Part shown: one piece after another, positions 9,852 to 52,594 of the stretch
Numbering within the stretch: the first letter of the stretch is position 1
How the letters are laid out: each line of letters begins with the position of its first letter
Virus record (IMG/VR): IMGVR_UViG_3300045391_006539
Source of the DNA: a virus
Lineage: Duplodnaviria > Caudoviricetes
DNA length: 64,000 nucleotides
Direction: 5' to 3' (one strand)
The notes under the pieces: generated by a model
The model's input: the letters and a program-made list of their open reading frames with translations, nothing else
Told to the model about the DNA's origin: nothing
Databases searched by the model: none
Made by a program: the position numbers and the translations under genes

Positions 9852-10748
9852 GTGGCCATCGGCATCTCCGTCGACGACGTGGTCGTGCGTTCCCTGGACG
9901 TCGACCACTTCGAAGTCTCCTGGAAGCTCAAGCCGACGAGTCAGGACATTCTGGACTACACGTTCCAGGTCCTGCGCTCGGAGGCGGCGATGGGTCCCTT
10001 CGAAGCGGTCTCGGCGGAGATGGACGACCGGTTCTTCTTTGTCGACAACCGCATCGCCAGCGGCAACGACTTCCGGCAGTGGTTCTACACCATCCGGGTC
10101 AAGGACAAGCAGTCGGGCGACACCAAGGACTTCGGTCCCGTCTCGCCCGGTGCTGACGCAGACCTCATCGCCGCGGAGCTGCGCAAACACATCAACCTGC
10201 TGATGCAGGAGTTCATCGGGCGCAGGTGCTGGGTCTTCCCCGTACGCACCTTCGGTCAACGCTGCTCGTGCTGGAACCCGACGTTGCAGAAGCGCACGCG
10301 GAGCCACTGCCTCACTTGCTACGATACGGGCTTCGTGCGCGGCTATATGACGCCCATCGAAGTCTGGGCCAGCATCGACCCGGATACGAAGAACGAGCAG
10401 AACATGACGCTGGGTCCGACCCAGCAGAGCAACACCTCGGCGAAGCTCGGCTTCTTCCCACCCGTCAAACCGCGCGACGTCATCGTCGAGGCGGAGAACA
10501 TTCGCTGGCGCATCGTGACCGTGGGTGGGACCGAGCAGGTGCGTGCCCAAGTGCACCAGGAAATCACCCTGCACAAGATTCCCTCGACGGACATCGAGTA
10601 TCGACTACCACTCGACCCGGGCGGCGCGCTGCAGAACTTGTGGCTCTCGCCACCTCGGAACTTCAGCAACCCCCACAACTATGAGGGCTTCACGTCCGAG
10701 GACTACATCAACGCCCAGCGTCTATACACCTCGCGGTTCCCCCAGTGA
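9852..10748 (+). CDS. Putative head-closure/neck protein with Zn-ribbon insertion
   Basis: FN3-like N-terminus; RCSCW..HCLTCYDTGF..GY; PVKPRDVIVE..RWRIV barrel; between head and tail genes. Confidence 0.55.
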   Translation: MAIGISVDDVVVRSLDVDHFEVSWKLKPTSQDILDYTFQVLRSEAAMGPFEAVSAEMDDRFFFVDNRIASGNDFRQWFYTIRVKDKQSGDTKDFGPVSPGADADLIAAELRKHINLLMQEFIGRRCWVFPVRTFGQRCSCWNPTLQKRTRSHCLTCYDTGFVRGYMTPIEVWASIDPDTKNEQNMTLGPTQQSNTSAKLGFFPPVKPRDVIVEAENIRWRIVTVGGTEQVRAQVHQEITLHKIPSTDIEYRLPLDPGGALQNLWLSPPRNFSNPHNYEGFTSEDYINAQRLYTSRFPQ

Positions 10749-11134
10749 TGGACAAGTTTTCGCACTGCCTCGACGTTCTCTCCAAACTGGCGGAGCTCGC
10801 GCCCGACCCCATCAAACCGTCGCCGCCAGACCCGCAGATGCCCCCGGGTCGAGCGCTCAGCCTCGCCAAGACGCTCGGCGTCGGGACACTCGGCCTCGGT
10901 GCCGGTTATCTGGCGGGTGCAGGTCTCGGCAAGGGCATCGAGTACGTGATGGGGCAGCAAGGTGAGAATCCGGCCAGTGCTGCACGCGTCATCGCGCCCG
11001 TGGCGGGCGCCGCCGCCGGTATCATCTATCCTCTCTGGAAGGAACGGGAGCAGCAGGTGCTCCGTCAGGCGGTAGAAAAACGACATGCCTACGAGAGTGC
11101 ACGAAACCAAAACAGGGGCAGGCTTCCCGGGTAG
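10745..11134 (+). CDS. Small K-x-A / Gly-zipper protein
   Basis: FSHCLDVLSKLAE leader; two Gly/Ala hydrophobic segments. Confidence 0.55.
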   Translation: MMDKFSHCLDVLSKLAELAPDPIKPSPPDPQMPPGRALSLAKTLGVGTLGLGAGYLAGAGLGKGIEYVMGQQGENPASAARVIAPVAGAAAGIIYPLWKEREQQVLRQAVEKRHAYESARNQNRGRLPG

Positions 11135-33410: not shown

Positions 33411-33802
33411 TGCCGGGTCCCGCCATTCGGGGCCGCTGCATCAAGGAGATAGAAGTGCCCAAGAAATCTGGAGTCCACTACGAGTGTGAGCGCTGCGAGC
33501 GCGACTGGTTCAGTGAGAAGGAAGTCGACACGGCCAAGATTGTCGTGCGCTTTCAGAGTCCGAGCGCGGCCTCGCTCGATGCGGAGTACGACATCCTCTG
33601 TGATAGTTGTGCCCAGACCGTGGAGAATCTAGTGCGTTCCATCGCGCGCGAGCTCAAGAAACTCCCTGCGGACAAGTCCAAGGCTAAGAAAGAGAGGCCG
33701 AGCCTCTCTCCCCCCAATGGCTCTATGACAGTCGCTGAGACAGAGCCACCATCGAGAGCGCTGGATGTCCATGCTCCCGCTTCCCACGCCAAGTCACGAT
33801 GA
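33407..33802 (+). CDS. Zn-finger hypothetical protein
   Basis: YECERC..ILCDSC; true start may be downstream at VPKK. Confidence 0.55.
   Translation: MMPGPAIRGRCIKEIEVPKKSGVHYECERCERDWFSEKEVDTAKIVVRFQSPSAASLDAEYDILCDSCAQTVENLVRSIARELKKLPADKSKAKKERPSLSPPNGSMTVAETEPPSRALDVHAPASHAKSR
33682..33709 (-). terminator. Intrinsic terminator with TAGCC tail
   Basis: Stem AGAGAGGC/GCCTCTCT; minus strand continues TTCTTAGCC; just past the stop at 33723. Confidence 0.6.
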
Positions 33803-34385
33803 GCGTGTGTGGGATTCCTTGTAAGTCCCCACGCCGTTCGATTCTGAAGGACGCACTCGGTATCATCCGCAAGAGGTAGGCGTTACTTCCTTGCGGCATC
33901 TTGCCTTTGCACACGATGGTCACTCCTTGTGGGGGGAACATCGAATCGTAGGTTCTCCGAACGCGTTTCGTCTTTTCGTCCACCCACTCCGTGAATGCCG
34001 AGCTCTTGAATTTGACCCGGCCCTTCTGCTCCGTCGTCTCGACGAGGACTAGAGCATCATCGCTTCGTTCATGCTCCCGAATGACCACACCCGACCTCGA
34101 TAGGTCGGCACGCAGGAGTGCTGGTGACTCTTTCTCCACGGTCATCACCAGCTTTCTGATTCGTCTGAGTTCTTCCTGACTCAAGCTCCTATCCTTGTAC
34201 ATCCCGCGAGAGAGGCACTCGCGCAACCGACTCGAGACTCGATAACGAGCGGCCAGTAGTCCACTACTGAGCCTCGAATCCAGTGCGACGCGTGCGTCGC
34301 CCACTTCTATGCAAAATCCCCCGGTCTCCGTCTCGCTCAAATGAATGCCGACGATGGCGTCCTCGTCGACACGATAACATCGCAT
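33723..34385 (-). CDS. Hypothetical protein
   Basis: SD GAGGAGGAG; own promoter and terminator. Confidence 0.65.
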   Translation of the reverse strand: MRCYRVDEDAIVGIHLSETETGGFCIEVGDARVALDSRLSSGLLAARYRVSSRLRECLSRGMYKDRSLSQEELRRIRKLVMTVEKESPALLRADLSRSGVVIREHERSDDALVLVETTEQKGRVKFKSSAFTEWVDEKTKRVRRTYDSMFPPQGVTIVCKGKMPQGSNAYLLRMIPSASFRIERRGDLQGIPHTLIVTWRGKREHGHPALSMVALSQRLS

Positions 34386-34417: not shown

Positions 34418-34444
34418 TTATCCCGTCAGTCTCATCAATTTTTC
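34418..34444 (-). promoter_or_regulatory. Sigma28-like promoter GAAA-N15-CGGGATAA
   Basis: Motif copy 33 nt upstream of ATG 34385. Confidence 0.65.
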
Positions 34445-39256: not shown

Positions 39257-40717
39257 ATGTCGTTCTCCTTTGCTATTGCGCTAGACAAGCTCGCTGACAT
39301 CTCGACCGAGCTCAAGGACTACCAGCAGCGGGTGGTCGAGCGCATACAGGAGAAGGGTCGCCCGGGGCTCGTGGTTGCCCACGGTCTCGGTACGGGTAAG
39401 ACCCTCTCTTCCATCGCAGCGCAGGACGCGCTCGAGACACCGGCGACGGTGGTGGTCCCCGCCGCACTCAAGGCGAACTACGAGAAGGAGCGGGCCCGAC
39501 ATCTGACGGGTAAGAAGCAGCCCATCAAGCTCGAGTCGCTGCAGAACGTGGCGCGTGCGGGTATCCCCAAGAGCCAGCTCCTCGTCGTAGATGAGGCCCA
39601 TCGGGGCCGAGACCCGGCGAGCGCCACCTTCAAGGCCATCCGAGATGCCAAAGCGGACAAGAAGATGCTGCTCACGGCCAGCCCCTTTTACAACAGCCCC
39701 CACGACCTCGCCCCGCTCATCAACGTGGCGGCGAACGAGCGGGTGCTGCCCAACGACAAGAAGGAGTTCGACGCCCGTTACACACGCTTCCGCCCAGTCT
39801 ATCCGAGTCTCTGGGGTCGGTTGCGGGGTGACAAACCTGGCGAGGTGCAGGAGCTCAACCCCCGTCGGCGTGGCGAGCTCAAGAGCATCTATGACAAGTG
39901 GGTGGACTACCAACCGGGTGGCACCGAGGGCTTTCCCACTGTCACACGTGAAGACGTGGATGTGCCCATGAACAGCGAGCAGCTCGGGGTCTACGACACG
40001 TTGATGGACACGGCGCCGAGCTGGGTCTCGCGCAAGGTGAAGAGTGGTCTGCCTCCCAGCAAGGCCGAGGCGACCCAGCTCAACGCCTTCCTCACCGGTG
40101 CGCGCCAGGCGAGTCTATCGACCGCACCATTCGTTCAGGGCGATACGAAAGTCCACGAAACCAAGATTCAAAAGGCCTTCGAGAACCTGCGGAAGGAGCT
40201 CGAGACCAACCCTGACGCGCGGGCCGTGGTCTATAGCAACTTCCTCCAGGGTGGCATCCGTCCCTATGCCAATCGCCTCACGGCCGCCGGCATTCCCTTT
40301 GGTGAGTACACGGGCGAGATTCCCAGGACCCAACGCGACCAGCTCGTTCGGGACTACAACGAGGGCAAGAAGAGGGTGATGCTGCTTTCGAGTGCGGGTG
40401 GAGAAGGCCTAGACCTCAAGGGCACGCGCCTCATGCAGGTACTGGAGCCGCATTGGAACCGAGAGAAATTACTCCAGGTCGAGGGTCGCGGCATTCGCTA
40501 TGGCAGCCACGAGCATCTTCCAGAGGACCAGCGCAACGTGCGCGTCCAGACCTATCGAGCCACGCGTCCTCGCCAGGGCTTGCTCGAGCACCTACACGTC
40601 AGCAAGCCGGGCGGTGGTGTAGACGAGTACCTGAGCACGCGCAGCAAGGAGAAGGAAGACTTGAACGAGCAGTTCCGGAGTCTCTTGGCTCAGCAGCGTG
40701 AAGATAAGCAGGGCTAG
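39257..40717 (+). CDS. SNF2-like superfamily 2 helicase with a K-x-A leader
   Basis: LKDYQ, HGLGTGKT, VVDEAH, LLTASP, SSAGGEGLDL, EPHWN..QVEGRGIR. Confidence 0.88.
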   Translation: MSFSFAIALDKLADISTELKDYQQRVVERIQEKGRPGLVVAHGLGTGKTLSSIAAQDALETPATVVVPAALKANYEKERARHLTGKKQPIKLESLQNVARAGIPKSQLLVVDEAHRGRDPASATFKAIRDAKADKKMLLTASPFYNSPHDLAPLINVAANERVLPNDKKEFDARYTRFRPVYPSLWGRLRGDKPGEVQELNPRRRGELKSIYDKWVDYQPGGTEGFPTVTREDVDVPMNSEQLGVYDTLMDTAPSWVSRKVKSGLPPSKAEATQLNAFLTGARQASLSTAPFVQGDTKVHETKIQKAFENLRKELETNPDARAVVYSNFLQGGIRPYANRLTAAGIPFGEYTGEIPRTQRDQLVRDYNEGKKRVMLLSSAGGEGLDLKGTRLMQVLEPHWNREKLLQVEGRGIRYGSHEHLPEDQRNVRVQTYRATRPRQGLLEHLHVSKPGGGVDEYLSTRSKEKEDLNEQFRSLLAQQREDKQG

Positions 40718-40748: not shown

Positions 40749-41351
40749 TCAGTTCGGGAGGTTGCGGACCCCCTTCGTGTGTCGGTGGAGTGAAAGTGTC
40801 TGACCAGCCGCTGAGGCTTGTTGCTGGAGTGGGGCAGAGAGGATTTGGACCTGCTCTCGTAGCTCAGTAAATTGAGTTGAGAGTGCTGTTAGGGCAGCTC
40901 TGAGCTCTTCATTCTCTGCCATCAACTGCTTGAGCTGCTCTTGGGATGGAGCGCCCAGAGGGATGTTAGCCCGACGCCACTCCTTCAAGTGCTGGGCGTT
41001 ATGGAGGATGAACTGAGCTGCGCGTGGAGACCTGCTCAGCTGACAATGAACATACATATCGGTCTCAGTCCAGAGAACCATGTCTTTCCGAACTCGCTTC
41101 ACACCGAAGCTATCTTTGTGCTCTCGCACTAGTCCAATGATGGACTCATGCAATGCGTTACGTGTACTTGAAGTACATCTAACCGGGTTGAACAGGGTTG
41201 GGTTTCGGTCGAAGTTCCTCCATATCGTCTGGGTTTCTACGTCCAGCGCTGACGCCAGCATGGGTGTGGTGGTCACTGCATCATCTGGTGGAAGGGCAAT
41301 GATTGCGAAGTCGATGTCGAACAACTTGTACGAAGCAAACTGGTATTTCAT
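40749..41351 (-). CDS. ORF6N/antirepressor-like DNA-binding protein with C-terminal coiled coil
   Basis: LASALDVET..RNFDRN..F and LWTE..QLSRSPRAAQF resemble the ORF6N pattern; SD GGAGG. Confidence 0.65.
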   Translation of the reverse strand: MKYQFASYKLFDIDFAIIALPPDDAVTTTPMLASALDVETQTIWRNFDRNPTLFNPVRCTSSTRNALHESIIGLVREHKDSFGVKRVRKDMVLWTETDMYVHCQLSRSPRAAQFILHNAQHLKEWRRANIPLGAPSQEQLKQLMAENEELRAALTALSTQFTELREQVQILSAPLQQQASAAGQTLSLHRHTKGVRNLPN

Positions 41352-41389: not shown

Positions 41390-41416
41390 TTATGCCGCTG
41401 CTCGTAGAGTTCTTGC
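41390..41416 (-). promoter_or_regulatory. Sigma28-like promoter GCAA-N15-CGGCATAA
   Basis: Motif copy 39 nt upstream of ATG 41351. Confidence 0.65.
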
Positions 41417-47688: not shown

Positions 47689-49062
47689 ATGCCTTCACTC
47701 CTCCGCTGGAAGTTGCCGAAATCCCGGACTGGGCGTAGACCCATCAGCGTCGCCAAACTCTTGAAGCGGGAAGCAGAGGGTGTCGTCTTCAAGAAGCATG
47801 GCTTCAAGCTCGATGGGGAGACCACCTTTCAAGGACTCGGCATCGCCATCGAGAATGGCGTGGGTTCGACGCGCAAGGGAAAGGATGCTGACGGTACTCC
47901 GTGGTCTATTACCTACAAGTCTCCGTATGGTTATGTGCGGGGGACCAAAGGCGCAGACGGAGAAGAGGTCGATTGCTACGTCGGACCCGAGCGAGATGCC
48001 GATACCGCTTACGTCGTTCACCAAAAGAAGGATGACGGTAGTTACGACGAAGACACGGTCATGCTGGGCTACGCTTCCAAAGCCGACGCCAAGGCTGACA
48101 TTCTGCGTCACTACTCCAATCCCAAGTACGTTGGCGAAGTTGTCCCAGTCGCGATGGACCGGCTCCAGAAGCTTTTCTCTTCAGGCGAGAAACTGGTCAA
48201 GATTAGCGCTGCGACCCATGATTACGACTACCCCGAACTGGACCCTCACGAGACTGGCGGTGCTGCCCGCCCCTGGCGTCGGCGAGAGGAAGCACCTCCG
48301 AGAGACGAGGTAGAAATCATGCCCACACCCAAGGTCGAGCAGCGCGGAGACTACGCAGGGACCTCTTACGCCGGCACGCTGGCGACTCCAGGTGGCTTCG
48401 AGGACCTCGGCAAGACGGCGCAAGGCCTTCGGGCACTGAACTACATGAGCCGAGACTGGGTCAAGGAGGGCATGGACCCAGGTACGCCCATGAGCCCGCC
48501 CCGCTTTCCGAAGATGGACCGGGTGCGTGACAACACGCTCGAGCTCCAGAGTCACGGGTTGCACGTCAACGACATCTCGCCCGAATACGTGGCGGATAAC
48601 AAGGAAGCGGCAGCACGCCGTGGCTTCTTCGACCATCTGCAGAAGGTGGCCTTCCAGAACGGCATCCCGCCCTGGCGGGGGTCACTCGGAGAGTTCGAGG
48701 CCTTCGTGAGCGAGAAGCTCGCCGAGGTGACGCGTGAACAAGCCAACGAGGCTGTAGAACGCCTCGATGCCATCGAGCACAGCCGGCCCACGCTCGGGCA
48801 GCTCTCGCGGGGCGCCCTCATCGGTTCGCTCGTGGGTCCTATCTCGAGCAACACGAGCAAGCTCATCTCGTCAGGGCATCTACACAGTCCACGAGACATC
48901 GCCGGGCAGATTGCCGGCGGAGTGGTCTTCGGTACGGCAGCACCTCTTCTCAAATACAAGGTCGAGAGCGGCGCCGAGCGCAAGGTCCTCGAGGACTACA
49001 TCAACCAGGGTCACGGGGGGCGTCTCGCCACCCAGATTGAACACAAGCTGGGAGAGTCATGA
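47689..49062 (+). CDS. Polyvalent-protein-type inorganic pyrophosphatase (InPase) domain followed by K-x-A segments
   Basis: IAIEN..GS.R.G.D..G.PW....YGY..GT.GADGE.VD.YVGP..VVHQ..YDE..VMLGY; VKISA, GKTAQ, QKVAF, EKLAE. Confidence 0.75.
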   Translation: MPSLLRWKLPKSRTGRRPISVAKLLKREAEGVVFKKHGFKLDGETTFQGLGIAIENGVGSTRKGKDADGTPWSITYKSPYGYVRGTKGADGEEVDCYVGPERDADTAYVVHQKKDDGSYDEDTVMLGYASKADAKADILRHYSNPKYVGEVVPVAMDRLQKLFSSGEKLVKISAATHDYDYPELDPHETGGAARPWRRREEAPPRDEVEIMPTPKVEQRGDYAGTSYAGTLATPGGFEDLGKTAQGLRALNYMSRDWVKEGMDPGTPMSPPRFPKMDRVRDNTLELQSHGLHVNDISPEYVADNKEAAARRGFFDHLQKVAFQNGIPPWRGSLGEFEAFVSEKLAEVTREQANEAVERLDAIEHSRPTLGQLSRGALIGSLVGPISSNTSKLISSGHLHSPRDIAGQIAGGVVFGTAAPLLKYKVESGAERKVLEDYINQGHGGRLATQIEHKLGES

Positions 49063-49307
49063 AATTCGAATATTGCCTGGAAGCACTGGAGAAGCACGCG
49101 GGTCTCGGTGACAGCCTCAAGCGGCTGGCGCTGACGGAGATTCCGGGTACGAAGCCTTGGGTCATCCAGCCCGCAAAGGCCACGGCCTCAGCAGGCTTTG
49201 GCAAGGCCACGCGCAGTATGAGCGGCGTGCGCCCAGCCACCAAACGACTCGCGAGTGGTGCCTATGACGTGAGCCACATGGCTCGACAGATGGGGCTCGA
49301 CAAGTAA
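49059..49307 (+). CDS. Small K-x-A protein
   Basis: MKFEYCLEALEKHAG leader; ATGA-coupled. Confidence 0.6.
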   Translation: MKFEYCLEALEKHAGLGDSLKRLALTEIPGTKPWVIQPAKATASAGFGKATRSMSGVRPATKRLASGAYDVSHMARQMGLDK

Positions 49308-49310
49308 GCC

Positions 49311-50396
49311 ATGCCTGCTTGGATTCACCAGAGGGCGCGGCACATCATGTCCAGGAACCCGGACATGGAGGAAGGACTCGCCTTTGCACTGGCGACACAG
49401 CAATCCCATGCGCTCGGGAAGAGTCCAAAGTCCTACGGTACGGAAGAAGGCCGCTCGACGGCCAAGAAGAAGTACAAGGACCCCAAGGTCATGAAGAAGA
49501 CCGCCTTCGTCGAAGCGCTGCCGAGTCTCACGGGACTCGCCACGGGCTATGGTCCAGGGCGCGGCATTGCCGGCAACACGGCGGCCGTGCTCGCGCCCGA
49601 GGGCCGCGTGCATCGGTCGGACAACATGGCCCGCAATCTCGGAGCCGTGGCCGTACCCGTCGGTGGTCTCGTGGCCATGGGCCTCACGCATCACAAGGGC
49701 CTGGCGGGCAAACTCGGCAAGCTGGTCGAGGGCAAGTTCCCAAGAGGCCTCATCGCCGACCCGAACATCGAGCAGGAGCTCGTGCGGGTGGGTACTCCTG
49801 CCGCTGCAGCCATGGGTGGCAGCCTCGCCGGCGGTGCCCTCATGGGTGGCCTCGTGGGTGGCATTCAGAGACTCCGTGGCCCCCTCGGTCGTGACAAGGA
49901 GGCCTCCATCGACATGGGCGCAACCATGTTCACCCTGACCAAGAGCGCCTTCAACACCAACCAGTACTCGGGCGTGATGAACCCACCGAGCATGGTCTAC
50001 GCGAGTGGCATTCCAGGCTTCCAAGAACCGCCCGTGAAGACGGCAGGGCCACCGCCGCCCGAGGAGGATGAACCTCTACCCCGGTCCAAGATGGCGAGCG
50101 CTCTCGAACAACTCGAAGAGCGCGAGCTTCATGGGCCTGGCATTCGCGTGCCCAACGTGGTGCTCTCGGCCGTGGAGGATGGCGTGCGCTTTGGTCGGCG
50201 CTACGTGCACGCGGAGGACCAGGAGAAGACGGGTGCCTCGGGCATGTTCACACCCATGAGCCAGCTCGGCAAGGCCAAGAGCGTGGGTCTACCCAAGGTG
50301 ACCACCCCACCCGGTCCCTCCATCGCCCAAATATCGAAACCCACAGGGTTTGGTCGCCCCATCTCGGGAGCCGCGAAGGGCAACAACATCATCTGA
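49311..50396 (+). CDS. K-x-A / Gly-zipper protein
   Basis: KKTAF, DKEAS, TKSAF, VKTAG, SKMAS. Confidence 0.65.
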   Translation: MPAWIHQRARHIMSRNPDMEEGLAFALATQQSHALGKSPKSYGTEEGRSTAKKKYKDPKVMKKTAFVEALPSLTGLATGYGPGRGIAGNTAAVLAPEGRVHRSDNMARNLGAVAVPVGGLVAMGLTHHKGLAGKLGKLVEGKFPRGLIADPNIEQELVRVGTPAAAAMGGSLAGGALMGGLVGGIQRLRGPLGRDKEASIDMGATMFTLTKSAFNTNQYSGVMNPPSMVYASGIPGFQEPPVKTAGPPPPEEDEPLPRSKMASALEQLEERELHGPGIRVPNVVLSAVEDGVRFGRRYVHAEDQEKTGASGMFTPMSQLGKAKSVGLPKVTTPPGPSIAQISKPTGFGRPISGAAKGNNII

Positions 50397-50409
50397 GAAC
50401 CTGGGATAA
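50383..50409 (+). promoter_or_regulatory. Sigma28-like promoter ACAA-N15-TGGGATAA
   Basis: Motif copy; ATG 50418 lies 8 nt after it. Confidence 0.6.
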
Positions 50410-51035: not shown

Positions 51036-51361
51036 CGGAACCGAGATACGTCACATTGCGAATGACTGCCGAGCACACACGCCAGCTCGCGGGTGGTGAT
51101 TGGTGGAACGGGACTCTCGAGGTGAGCTTCGAGACCCTCTACCCAGACATGGTGGGCATCATCGCCAAAAAACTCGATGGCATGGTGGTTCACGAAGGTG
51201 ACAGCATGAGCGGTCAAATCATCGACATGCTCAAGGAGCAGCTCGAACAGAAAGACCGTGAGATGGCCATCTACAAATTCAACACGGAGGCTGAACTCCA
51301 GCGGCTGCGAGCACTGGAGGCGCAGCTCAATTCCTTGGCTGCAATGCAGGTGATACGATAG
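51032..51361 (+). CDS. Hypothetical coiled-coil protein
   Basis: ATGA-coupled. Confidence 0.55.
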   Translation: MTEPRYVTLRMTAEHTRQLAGGDWWNGTLEVSFETLYPDMVGIIAKKLDGMVVHEGDSMSGQIIDMLKEQLEQKDREMAIYKFNTEAELQRLRALEAQLNSLAAMQVIR

Positions 51362-51366
51362 ACCGC

Positions 51367-51729
51367 ATGAAGAGCGAGCAAGACTTCCTCACCTATCTCG
51401 ACAAGACCTCCGAAGCCCTGGAGACCAACGACACGACCTCGACGAGCGCCACTGCCGAGGTCTACTCTTCACAGAAGAGTGAGGAGTGTACCGACCACGA
51501 ACCCGTGGAGTTCTCAGACACGGCGCAGAGCAGCAGCAAGGACGTGCGTGAAGGTGTCCTCGACCGCGTGCTCATCCACACGCAGAAGGAGCGGGCCCTC
51601 ATCGGCAACATCCTCGACGGCAAGAGCGTCGAAACACAAGCCATCCAACTCCGCCCTGTCGAGAAGGTCTCTCACCCCCGTTCTCAGACATTGATGGAGC
51701 AGACCCGAAATCTCCTCAACCGAGTCTGA
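51367..51729 (+). CDS. Hypothetical protein with a K-x-S variant leader
   Basis: FLTYLDKTS; TGA-TACGAT 7 nt before ATG. Confidence 0.55.
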   Translation: MKSEQDFLTYLDKTSEALETNDTTSTSATAEVYSSQKSEECTDHEPVEFSDTAQSSSKDVREGVLDRVLIHTQKERALIGNILDGKSVETQAIQLRPVEKVSHPRSQTLMEQTRNLLNRV

Positions 51730-51771
51730 AAGACTCACGGTTAGAGAGGAATAACGACCATGGAGGAAACC

Positions 51772-52524
51772 ATGGCAAAGAAAACTCCAATCGACGAGTA
51801 TTTCTCGGCAAAACTGGAGAAGCACGCGCAGCGTGACGCACGTGACATCGAGATGTGGCAGACGTGGAAAGGTAACCCCAACCCCACGACGCTCGAGCCC
51901 CTCCTCGACCGCTTCAAACCGACGTTCAATACGGCCGTGCGTAATTGGAAGGCGCCCAATACGAACGAGGCAGCGTTTCGAGCCGAGCTCATGACGCATG
52001 CCATCGGCGCCTTCGAGAACTACGACCCCACGCGTGGTGCGAGCCTGTCGACGCACCTCACTCGGCGCATCGAGAAGGCCAAGCGTTTCAACACGCGAGT
52101 CCAGAACCTCGCATACATCCCCGAGGACAAGGTCAAGTACATCGGCCCCATCGACTCGGCTGCCGACGACCTGCGTGACGAGCTCAATCGAGACCCGACC
52201 CACGCCGAGATTGGGGCGCGTGTGGGCCTCTCCGGCAAGCGAGTCAAGGAGATTCAGAGTCTACGCCGCGCCGACATCCGTGGCTCGGCCTTCGCGAGCG
52301 ACCCGGTGGGCCACACCTCGAGTCGGGACCAGGAAGTCATTTCCCTCTTGCGTCACGAGCTCAAGCCGGGGGATGAACAAACGGTCTTCGACCACATCTA
52401 CGGTCTCAACGGCAAGGCCAAGAACGAGAGCACGGGCACCATCGCTCGTCTCATGGGCAAGAGCGAGTCCCAGATATCTCGCATCAAGAATACTATCGCC
52501 AACAAGTACAAGCAGTTCGCTTGA
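51772..52524 (+). CDS. RNA polymerase sigma factor (sigma70 family group 3, FliA/WhiG/SigB-like)
   Basis: Region 2 AFENYDPTRGASLSTH; region 3 LRDELNRDPTHAEIGARVGLS; region 4 IYGL..IARLMGKSESQISRIK; ATG 51772 with SD GGAGG (alternative 51760). Confidence 0.85.
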   Translation: MAKKTPIDEYFSAKLEKHAQRDARDIEMWQTWKGNPNPTTLEPLLDRFKPTFNTAVRNWKAPNTNEAAFRAELMTHAIGAFENYDPTRGASLSTHLTRRIEKAKRFNTRVQNLAYIPEDKVKYIGPIDSAADDLRDELNRDPTHAEIGARVGLSGKRVKEIQSLRRADIRGSAFASDPVGHTSSRDQEVISLLRHELKPGDEQTVFDHIYGLNGKAKNESTGTIARLMGKSESQISRIKNTIANKYKQFA

Positions 52525-52529
52525 ATAGT

Positions 52530-52594
52530 CCCGCTTCGAGCGGGCATCTGACGGCCATCGAGGGTTTTCTCTGACTTTCCCCTCGGTGGCCGTC
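52530..52594. promoter_or_regulatory. Two tandem hairpins after the sigma gene
   Basis: CCCGCT-TCG-AGCGGG (52530-52544); GACGGCCATCGAGGG / CCCTCGGTGGCCGTC (52550-52594). Confidence 0.55.

Follow-up and report, generated by a model that had tools for sequence, protein, structure and literature searches.

A phage sigma-70-family factor encoded behind a sigma28-like promoter class, plausibly carried in the virion of an Arash-like lineage

Which RNA polymerase (RNAP) does a sigma factor encoded by a phage serve, and does it enter the cell with the phage DNA? The question is raised by a gene at positions 51772 to 52524 (plus strand) of IMG/VR record IMGVR_UViG_3300045391_006539, a member of the Caudoviricetes, of which a stretch of 64,000 nucleotides, referred to below as the window, was analyzed. 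The window is high in GC (about 0.62) and its genes lie nearly all on the plus strand. A first-pass annotation made from the letters alone had proposed that this sigma factor is made late, packaged in the particle, clipped at a K-x-A site in an N-terminal leader and injected, where it would redirect the host core polymerase to early promoters. Our analysis leaves the packaging idea plausible and would replace the host-core and late-expression parts with a proposed sigma factor of the phage's virion polymerase, made from its own promoter class. The explanation that we favor, with chances that we place at about even, is that the gene encodes the sigma factor of a group of Arash-like, uncultured large phages, that it is packaged with the phages' own polymerase, and that its N-terminal extension is a spacing variant of a tag shared by other proteins of the lineage.

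The open reading frame (ORF) encodes 250 amino acids and is a genuine three-domain sigma-70-family factor. The Pfam models Sigma70_r3 (29.9 bits) and Sigma70_r4 (25.3 bits) both exceeded their cut-offs, Sigma70_r2 scored 15.6 bits, below its cut-off of 24, and the protein was assigned to PHROG 351. A profile built from 27 homologs aligned positions 74-170 with regions 2.3-3 of SigA and RpoS in the PDB (E 1e-10). The AlphaFold2 (AF2) model, with a predicted local distance difference test (pLDDT) score of 85, includes the C-terminal helix-turn-helix, and Foldseek matched it to full-length SigD, SigB, WhiG, sigmaS and SigA with a probability of 1.0 over 220-260 columns; the template modeling (TM) scores of these matches were merely 0.3-0.37, because the domain arrangement differs. 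Among the NCBIfam models FliA/WhiG (TIGR02479) was the best, as the first-pass annotation had it, at 28.3 bits against a curated cut-off of 189.6; judged by its sequence, the protein is FliA-like and no member of the FliA/WhiG family itself. An alternative in-frame ATG lies at 51760. The ATG at 51772 is the better start, since a GGAGG ribosome-binding site (51762-51766, plus strand, read directly from the sequence) lies 5 nt upstream, an identical protein in the database has 250 residues, and the 'M-E-x-x-M' starts of sigma homologs are the GGAGG ribosome site read in frame. The idea that the whole N-terminal extension is a Shine-Dalgarno region read in frame was rejected, as this accounts for only the four codons before ATG 51772. 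At E<=1e-30 the sigma family comprises 373 representatives, each standing for a sequence cluster, so that the phage family is apparently large and almost wholly uncultured. A megablast search of 20 kb of the window against phage records gave no match.

The relatives compared here comprise eighteen contigs from IMG/VR (95-191 kb), two from ENA (198 kb and 14.5 kb) and one from Logan; the complete ones measure about 185-190 kb, and only Salmonella phage Arash and three Vibrio phages have been cultured. All contigs fetched share a gene order in which a hub protein of ~1040 residues, a homolog of the Arash protein gp8 (annotated 'cell wall hydrolase, structural'), is followed by a run of small proteins and then by the sigma gene. 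In 10 out of 10 sigma-bearing contigs searched, the RNA_pol_Rpb2_6 domain had exactly one match per genome, and in eight of these the domain lay inside open frames of 2072-2493 residues that correspond to Arash gp206 and gp216 joined. The sigma factor and a phage RNAP therefore strictly co-occur in the relatives tested. Since every one of them encodes its own bacterial-type polymerase, the natural partner of the sigma factor would be that enzyme and not the host core, contrary to what had first been proposed; judged by co-occurrence in the relatives, it is almost certain that the sigma factor pairs with the beta-beta' RNAP that the phage itself encodes. An additional sigma factor, ECF-like (extracytoplasmic function) and about 195 residues long, was found in just two of five complete relatives (G001, 176097-176585; G005, 127294-127812), and the sigma factor studied here is therefore the constant one. 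Arash encodes a second, longer sigma factor, gp196 (L004, 20656-21693), which is off its virion list; gp196 and the ECF-like sigma factors are candidates for a later transcription class.

Evidence that such a sigma factor reaches the particle comes from Arash, the single cultured relative with a virion proteome. Its gp10 (OQ632216; PMC10585845) is orthologous to the window protein, with 31% identity over 83% of the protein, and was detected in virions purified on a sucrose gradient with 24 unique peptides and 467 spectra (PMC10585845, Table 2). We divided the spectra of that table by protein length. The sigma factor gp10 yields 2.0 spectra per residue (467/234), gp206 2.3, gp216 2.0 and the helicase gp217 2.4; the portal yields 1.5, the major capsid protein 4.3, and the deoxynucleoside monophosphate kinase and ribonucleotide reductase alpha 0.15-0.6. 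The parity of gp10, gp206, gp216 and gp217 is what would be expected from a stoichiometric polymerase-sigma-helicase cargo. No other protein of the Arash virion yielded as many spectra as the phage RNAP, and the neighbors gp4-gp17 of gp10 are nearly all virion proteins (PMC10585845). Arash also resembles the present lineage in that its sigma gene occupies the equivalent block after the hub/cell-wall-hydrolase protein, and its polymerase and helicase are orthologous; all four were detected in virions. It differs in that its sigma factor and helicase have no extension and its polymerase is split into two genes (gp206 and gp216). The Arash paper names these proteins in a table and does not discuss packaging of a holoenzyme, promoters or tags; our literature searches for a packaged sigma factor found just its proteome table (PMC10585845). 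The packaging of the window protein, as first proposed, is partly supported, through homology, by an ortholog that is present in purified particles at a level per residue like that of RNAP and helicase.

In the window, the pattern CAA-N16-GGVATAA has seven exact sites where 0.08 are expected and two AAA variants besides; with one mismatch allowed, 13 sites were found against 3.5 expected. The same scan gave 12 sites in contig G2, 18 in G3, 8 in G006 and 11 in G008, and none in G007, G009 and G010; a control pattern, run for G006 and G008 only, had zero matches in both. The layout equals the TAAA-N15-GCCGATAA of sigma28, with a 4-nt -35 word, 15 nt and an 8-nt -10 word ending in ATAA. The classical sigma28 -10 word CCGATAW was not enriched (7 against 5.5 expected), and a scan of 47-54 kb for sigma-70-type promoters found none. 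Most sites of the motif lie 19-40 nt before small non-structural genes, as the first-pass annotation had it for its nine sigma28-like promoters; the class, however, also precedes the sigma gene or its operon. One of the AAA variants, a one-mismatch promoter-like box at 51729-51754 (plus strand), is 17 nt before ATG 51772, and an exact CAA-N16-GGGATAA site at 50384-50409 (plus strand) heads the gene run 50418, 51032, 51367 and sigma; the first-pass annotation mentions neither of the two. G3 has a box at the place orthologous to 50384-50409, G2 (locus L009) has an exact site 21 nt before its sigma gene, and loci L002, L007, L008 and L015 have exact or near-exact boxes 17-24 nt before theirs. With these boxes before the gene or its operon, the sigma gene shares its regulation with the genes that its product presumably targets; this placement, in the window and in relatives, does not support the claim that it is made late from a structural promoter. 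We infer that this sigma factor is the one that reads the CAA-N16-GGVATAA promoters.

The N terminus distinguishes the window protein from the Arash ortholog. It carries a 19-residue extension (51772-51828, plus strand) that ends in K-H-A. The extension is conserved in all 26 of 26 close sigma homologs, and variant forms are kept in IMG/VR relatives down to 32% identity, in keeping with the prediction that phage homologs would retain it; it is absent from Arash and the low-GC relatives. The sigma factors of Arash, L019 and L020 begin 6-8 residues before the core motif D-L-x-L-W-x-x-W, and in the extended proteins the last K-x-[ASG] lies 5-8 residues before the same motif, so that a cut after K-x-A would recreate the N terminus of the short sigma factors. 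In Bacillus subtilis SigD about 9 residues precede the corresponding core motif, and we know of no such N-terminal tag on cellular FliA/SigD/WhiG members. The extension is an add-on, conserved in the high-GC branch.

The leader string quoted by the first-pass annotation is present, as are similar strings at 49059, 39257 and 51367 and inside the 5571 ORF. Within the window alone, this likeness of N termini is modest evidence, the patterns having been picked after inspection; in relatives the evidence that it exceeds chance is very strong. Two patterns derived from the window, fixed before these further data were seen, were run on sigma representatives taken from different 50% clusters. In the N-extensions of 109 representatives these patterns were 5-8 fold enriched, and one of them occurred in 30, where shuffled sequences gave 5.4 (at most 12 in any of 500 shuffles). 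Of the 30 matches, 27 fall within the first 30 residues, and the density is 18 times that of the sigma body; common ancestry inflates these counts, which are not probabilities. Sigma factors with an extra 40-170 residues have the tag-like motif at the extreme N terminus and not beside the core. In nine homologs with 40-130 extra N-terminal residues (P0090, P0091, P0093, P0094, P0097, P0119, P0151, P0160 and P0175), the sequence between tag and core holds a repeated V-x-x-H-x-R ... G-x-K ... V-x-x-H-x-R. In L049, an independent lineage, L-x-K-I-A is found at residues 13-20 in the sigma factor and in both its upstream neighbors.

A lineage-wide N-terminal tag on other proteins is real. Its consensus, hydrophobic-x-[DE]-[DE]-L-x-K-[IL]-A, opens many unrelated proteins of the virion block in this lineage, a helicase among them, and in relatives many non-orthologous proteins upstream of sigma open with [AS]-F-x-D-E-L-x-K-I-A. 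With a loose pattern of the D-E-L-x-K-I-A type, 18 of 32 matches in relatives begin at residues 8-14 of non-orthologous proteins. A tag profile built from such matches with the window excluded gave eight matches of at least 11 bits in two whole relatives, seven of them N-terminal and the eighth at a fusion junction. Four genes flanking sigma in a 35%-GC relative begin with M-I-N-x-[ED]-Y-L-[ER]-K-[IV]-A, and the sigma factor itself does not. Long-spaced copies are also found on non-sigma proteins of relatives. Since the tag occurs on proteins encoded among the tail genes too, a role restricted to head cargo is not established.

Internal copies of the tag coincide with gene boundaries of other phages, as in the case of the DNA helicase at 39257-40717 (plus strand; PHROG 62). 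The PHROG assignment means that this is not the head-type protein that it was first taken for. It has an add-on leader of 13-17 residues; in the alignment with Arash gp217, which lacks the extension, residue 18 of the window protein falls opposite residue 5. The ortholog in G3 forms the C-terminal part of a 1314-residue protein (contig of L012, 169276-173220) with 56% identity from the first residue; in this fusion an N-terminal region is followed by an InPase domain and then by the helicase, with the tag exactly at the InPase/helicase junction. In the window, helicase and InPase protein have separate genes, the latter being a virion-type protein at 47689-49062 (plus strand; Pfam PF18823, 1e-35) with internal leader-like motifs at 48622-48651 and 48691-48726, and the second of these motifs aligns with the N terminus that a gene of its own encodes in L002. 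An InPase domain is characteristic of polyvalent proteins, for which packaging and injection are predicted (PMC5512222).

Taken together, we propose that the sigma factor would bind the phage's single-chain beta-beta' polymerase, and not the host core, and would steer it to sigma28-like promoters (x-CAA, 15 nt, x-GG-V-ATAA), which lie before small non-structural genes and before sigma itself or its operon. The virion would be loaded with polymerase, sigma factor and helicase and would deliver them along with the DNA, the first transcripts would be made without a host factor, and the promoter class before sigma would then supply new sigma factor. In the high-GC branch, the window included, the sigma factor would bear an N-terminal tag of 19-23 residues, of a type found at the start of many virion-block proteins and at the module junctions of fused polyvalent proteins. 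The tag most likely helps to bring the protein into the particle, and it may be cut off after K-x-A. Injection, the pairing of sigma factor and polymerase, the choice of promoters and the role and cleavage of the tag are the inferred parts of this scheme.

Several observations weigh against it. The Arash virions came from one sucrose gradient, in which 116 of 272 proteins were detected, and the Arash authors allow for carry-over of abundant enzymes (PMC10585845). The sigma factors of Arash and of the low-GC relatives are tagless, and the polymerase showed no tag either, although the Arash proteins do occur in virions; the packing of sigma factor and helicase there without a tag means that it is dispensable for packaging in Arash and not universally necessary. 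A canonical-tag profile built without sigma factors gave nothing above 4 bits on sigma N termini, and in Smith-Waterman comparisons the sigma extension ranked in the top 3-13% in five lineages and was unremarkable in others. With the profile failing and the ranks middling, the sigma extension is a spaced variant and no clean copy, most likely, as judged from sequence, a spacing variant of the lineage tag. A profile of the sigma leader itself, run against all ORFs of the window, gave two weak matches only (E 0.2-0.5). Residues 10-38 form a single continuous helix in the AF2 model, with no hinge at the proposed cut. Finally, a search for S78 prohead proteases in five complete relatives found none, and the corresponding S77 search gave no match, its control also being silent, so that this second search was uninformative.

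The proteases bear on one alternative, in which the N-terminal motif is an uncleaved docking peptide for an assembly partner (scaffold, portal or chaperone) or a linker between polyvalent modules, with no protease site at all. This is possible, though we think it clearly less probable than its negation. It would account for the internal copies at module junctions as well as for the lack of an identified prohead protease in those searches, and most head proteins of SPN3US are packed uncleaved (PMC10052503). Gene fission and fusion exactly at the motif, and a distance from K-x-A to the core that matches the leaderless orthologs, fit a removable module instead, and neither is decisive.

A slightly less probable alternative, which we regard as doubtful, is that the sigma factor is not packaged but made during infection, where it guides a phage polymerase that is injected alone or made anew; the extension would then be a functional part of the sigma factor, such as a region-1.2-like helix or a regulatory element. 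The position of the gene behind the non-structural promoter class agrees with this, as do the continuous helix through the extension, the failure of the canonical-tag profile to recognize it, and the metabolic enzymes that the Arash virion preparations also held. These enzymes, however, yielded 3-13 times fewer spectra per residue than the Arash sigma factor, which equals the polymerase subunits in this measure, and the gene always lies within a virion/ejection gene block. The extension is moreover dispensable in several lineages and elsewhere sits at the N terminus, 40-170 residues away from the core, unlike a core helix.

The favored packaging of the sigma factor with the phage polymerase can also be put in a fuller form, in which a tagged precursor of the sigma factor is placed in the particle with the single-chain beta-beta' polymerase and the helicase, trimmed after K-x-A in the head and injected as part of an initiation complex of the bacterial type. 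The complex would fire sigma28-style promoters, that of the sigma gene among them, and so prime itself in a loop that does without host transcription factors; we consider this complete version unlikely. The version of the first-pass annotation, in which a packaged sigma factor, after clipping at K-x-A, is injected and takes host core RNAP to nine early promoters, is very improbable, for although the ortholog is found in virions, the N terminus is tag-like and binding to a bacterial core is conceivable for a sigma fold, the ten relatives all have their own polymerase, Arash packs it in large amounts, and the sigma family and its promoter motif are kept across phages of 51-64% GC whose hosts probably differ, which fits pairing within the phage.

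Phage sigma factors such as T4 gp55 and SPO1 gp28 and gp34 are made during infection, and the window protein resembles them as a phage-encoded specificity factor of the sigma family. FliA, SigD and WhiG (sigma28) are its best matches in family and fold and have an equivalent promoter layout. The known virion RNAPs (N4, phiKZ-like and crAss-like) work, to our knowledge, without a sigma factor. The enzyme of N4 is single-subunit, those of phiKZ, AR9 and SPN3US are multisubunit, and early genes are transcribed without host factors (PMC7598289, PMC10052503); no sigma factor has been found in the phiKZ group, and the known phage sigma factors, those of group 2 jumbo phages included, act on the host core and are not virion components (PMC7824862). 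Whereas virion RNAPs of the N4 and phiKZ types lack a sigma-70-family factor, here a canonical three-domain sigma factor occurs beside a bacterial-type beta-beta' chain in relatives. If our explanation is true, the particle would carry a sigma factor together with a polymerase of the bacterial type, which adds a third strategy to these two: the virus would bring along all that it needs to start transcription, which is unusual. Two proteins would then make up a compact transcription system of the bacterial type, with a defined promoter. The tag resembles the T4 capsid targeting sequence and the propeptides of SPN3US head proteins, which are 20-24 residues long (PMC10052503), in being a short N-terminal peptide on several unrelated virion proteins. 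It differs in that cleavage there follows Glu, in contrast to the putative K-x-A here, and in that it also occurs on proteins encoded by tail genes. Such a tag could serve to load foreign proteins into capsids, a use that is testable.

Directly upstream of sigma, at 51367-51729 (plus strand), lies a 120-residue acidic protein with a variant of the leader (family alignment A2), and its family stands directly upstream of sigma in every high-GC relative where it was found (10 distinct loci, the window included). The protein is probably disordered; besides the tag, its E-T-N-E-D stretch and its C-terminal part are conserved. It could be a partner of the sigma factor or an anti-sigma factor. A TGn-TANNNT promoter for leaderless transcripts had been proposed at this gene. 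The string is present; TANNNT-N6-ATG is not enriched (3 against 5 expected), and as only 5 nt separate the gene from the stop codon before it, it is simpler to assume translational coupling. A further word, ACAGTC, spotted by eye in intergenic DNA, was rejected for lack of a consistent motif. Just after the sigma stop, two strong hairpins (52515-52594, plus strand; RNA fold -46.6 kcal/mol, z -4.9), the second with a 15-bp stem, do not form a classical terminator because there is no U-run; they may mark the end of the transcription unit as a terminator for the phage polymerase.

Farther upstream, residues 4-14 of an 82-residue protein (49059-49307, plus strand) read E-Y-x4-L-E-K-H-A, which it has in common with the sigma leader, and its ortholog in L002 retains a K-x-A-G version. 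A 128-residue protein at 10748-11134 (plus strand) begins with the leader F-x-x-C-L-D-x-L-x-K-L-A, and the gene at the equivalent position in G3 bears a canonical leader. Searches of PHROG and Pfam with the sigma neighbors and other tag-bearing proteins assigned no families. A second motif, ~S-R-x-G-R-R-P-[IM]-[SR]-V-x3-L-L-[KR]-K-E-x2-G-x-[LV]-[FY]-K, stands about 10-20 residues beyond the tag in a single family of these small proteins; it opens the InPase protein of the window (47689-47790) and is also found in proteins of L009, L013, L017, L006, L011 and L016. The major capsid protein (1719-2834; PHROG 2522) is 30% identical to Arash gp226, and its tag-like N terminus, S-F-A-Q-K-L ... E-K-V-A-E, is homologous to that of Arash and is no add-on. 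On the minus strand, ORFs at 40749-41351 (200 residues) and 33723-34385 (220 residues) lie behind motif promoters at 41390-41415 and 34418-34443, respectively; both were skipped by the gene caller and are probably real genes.

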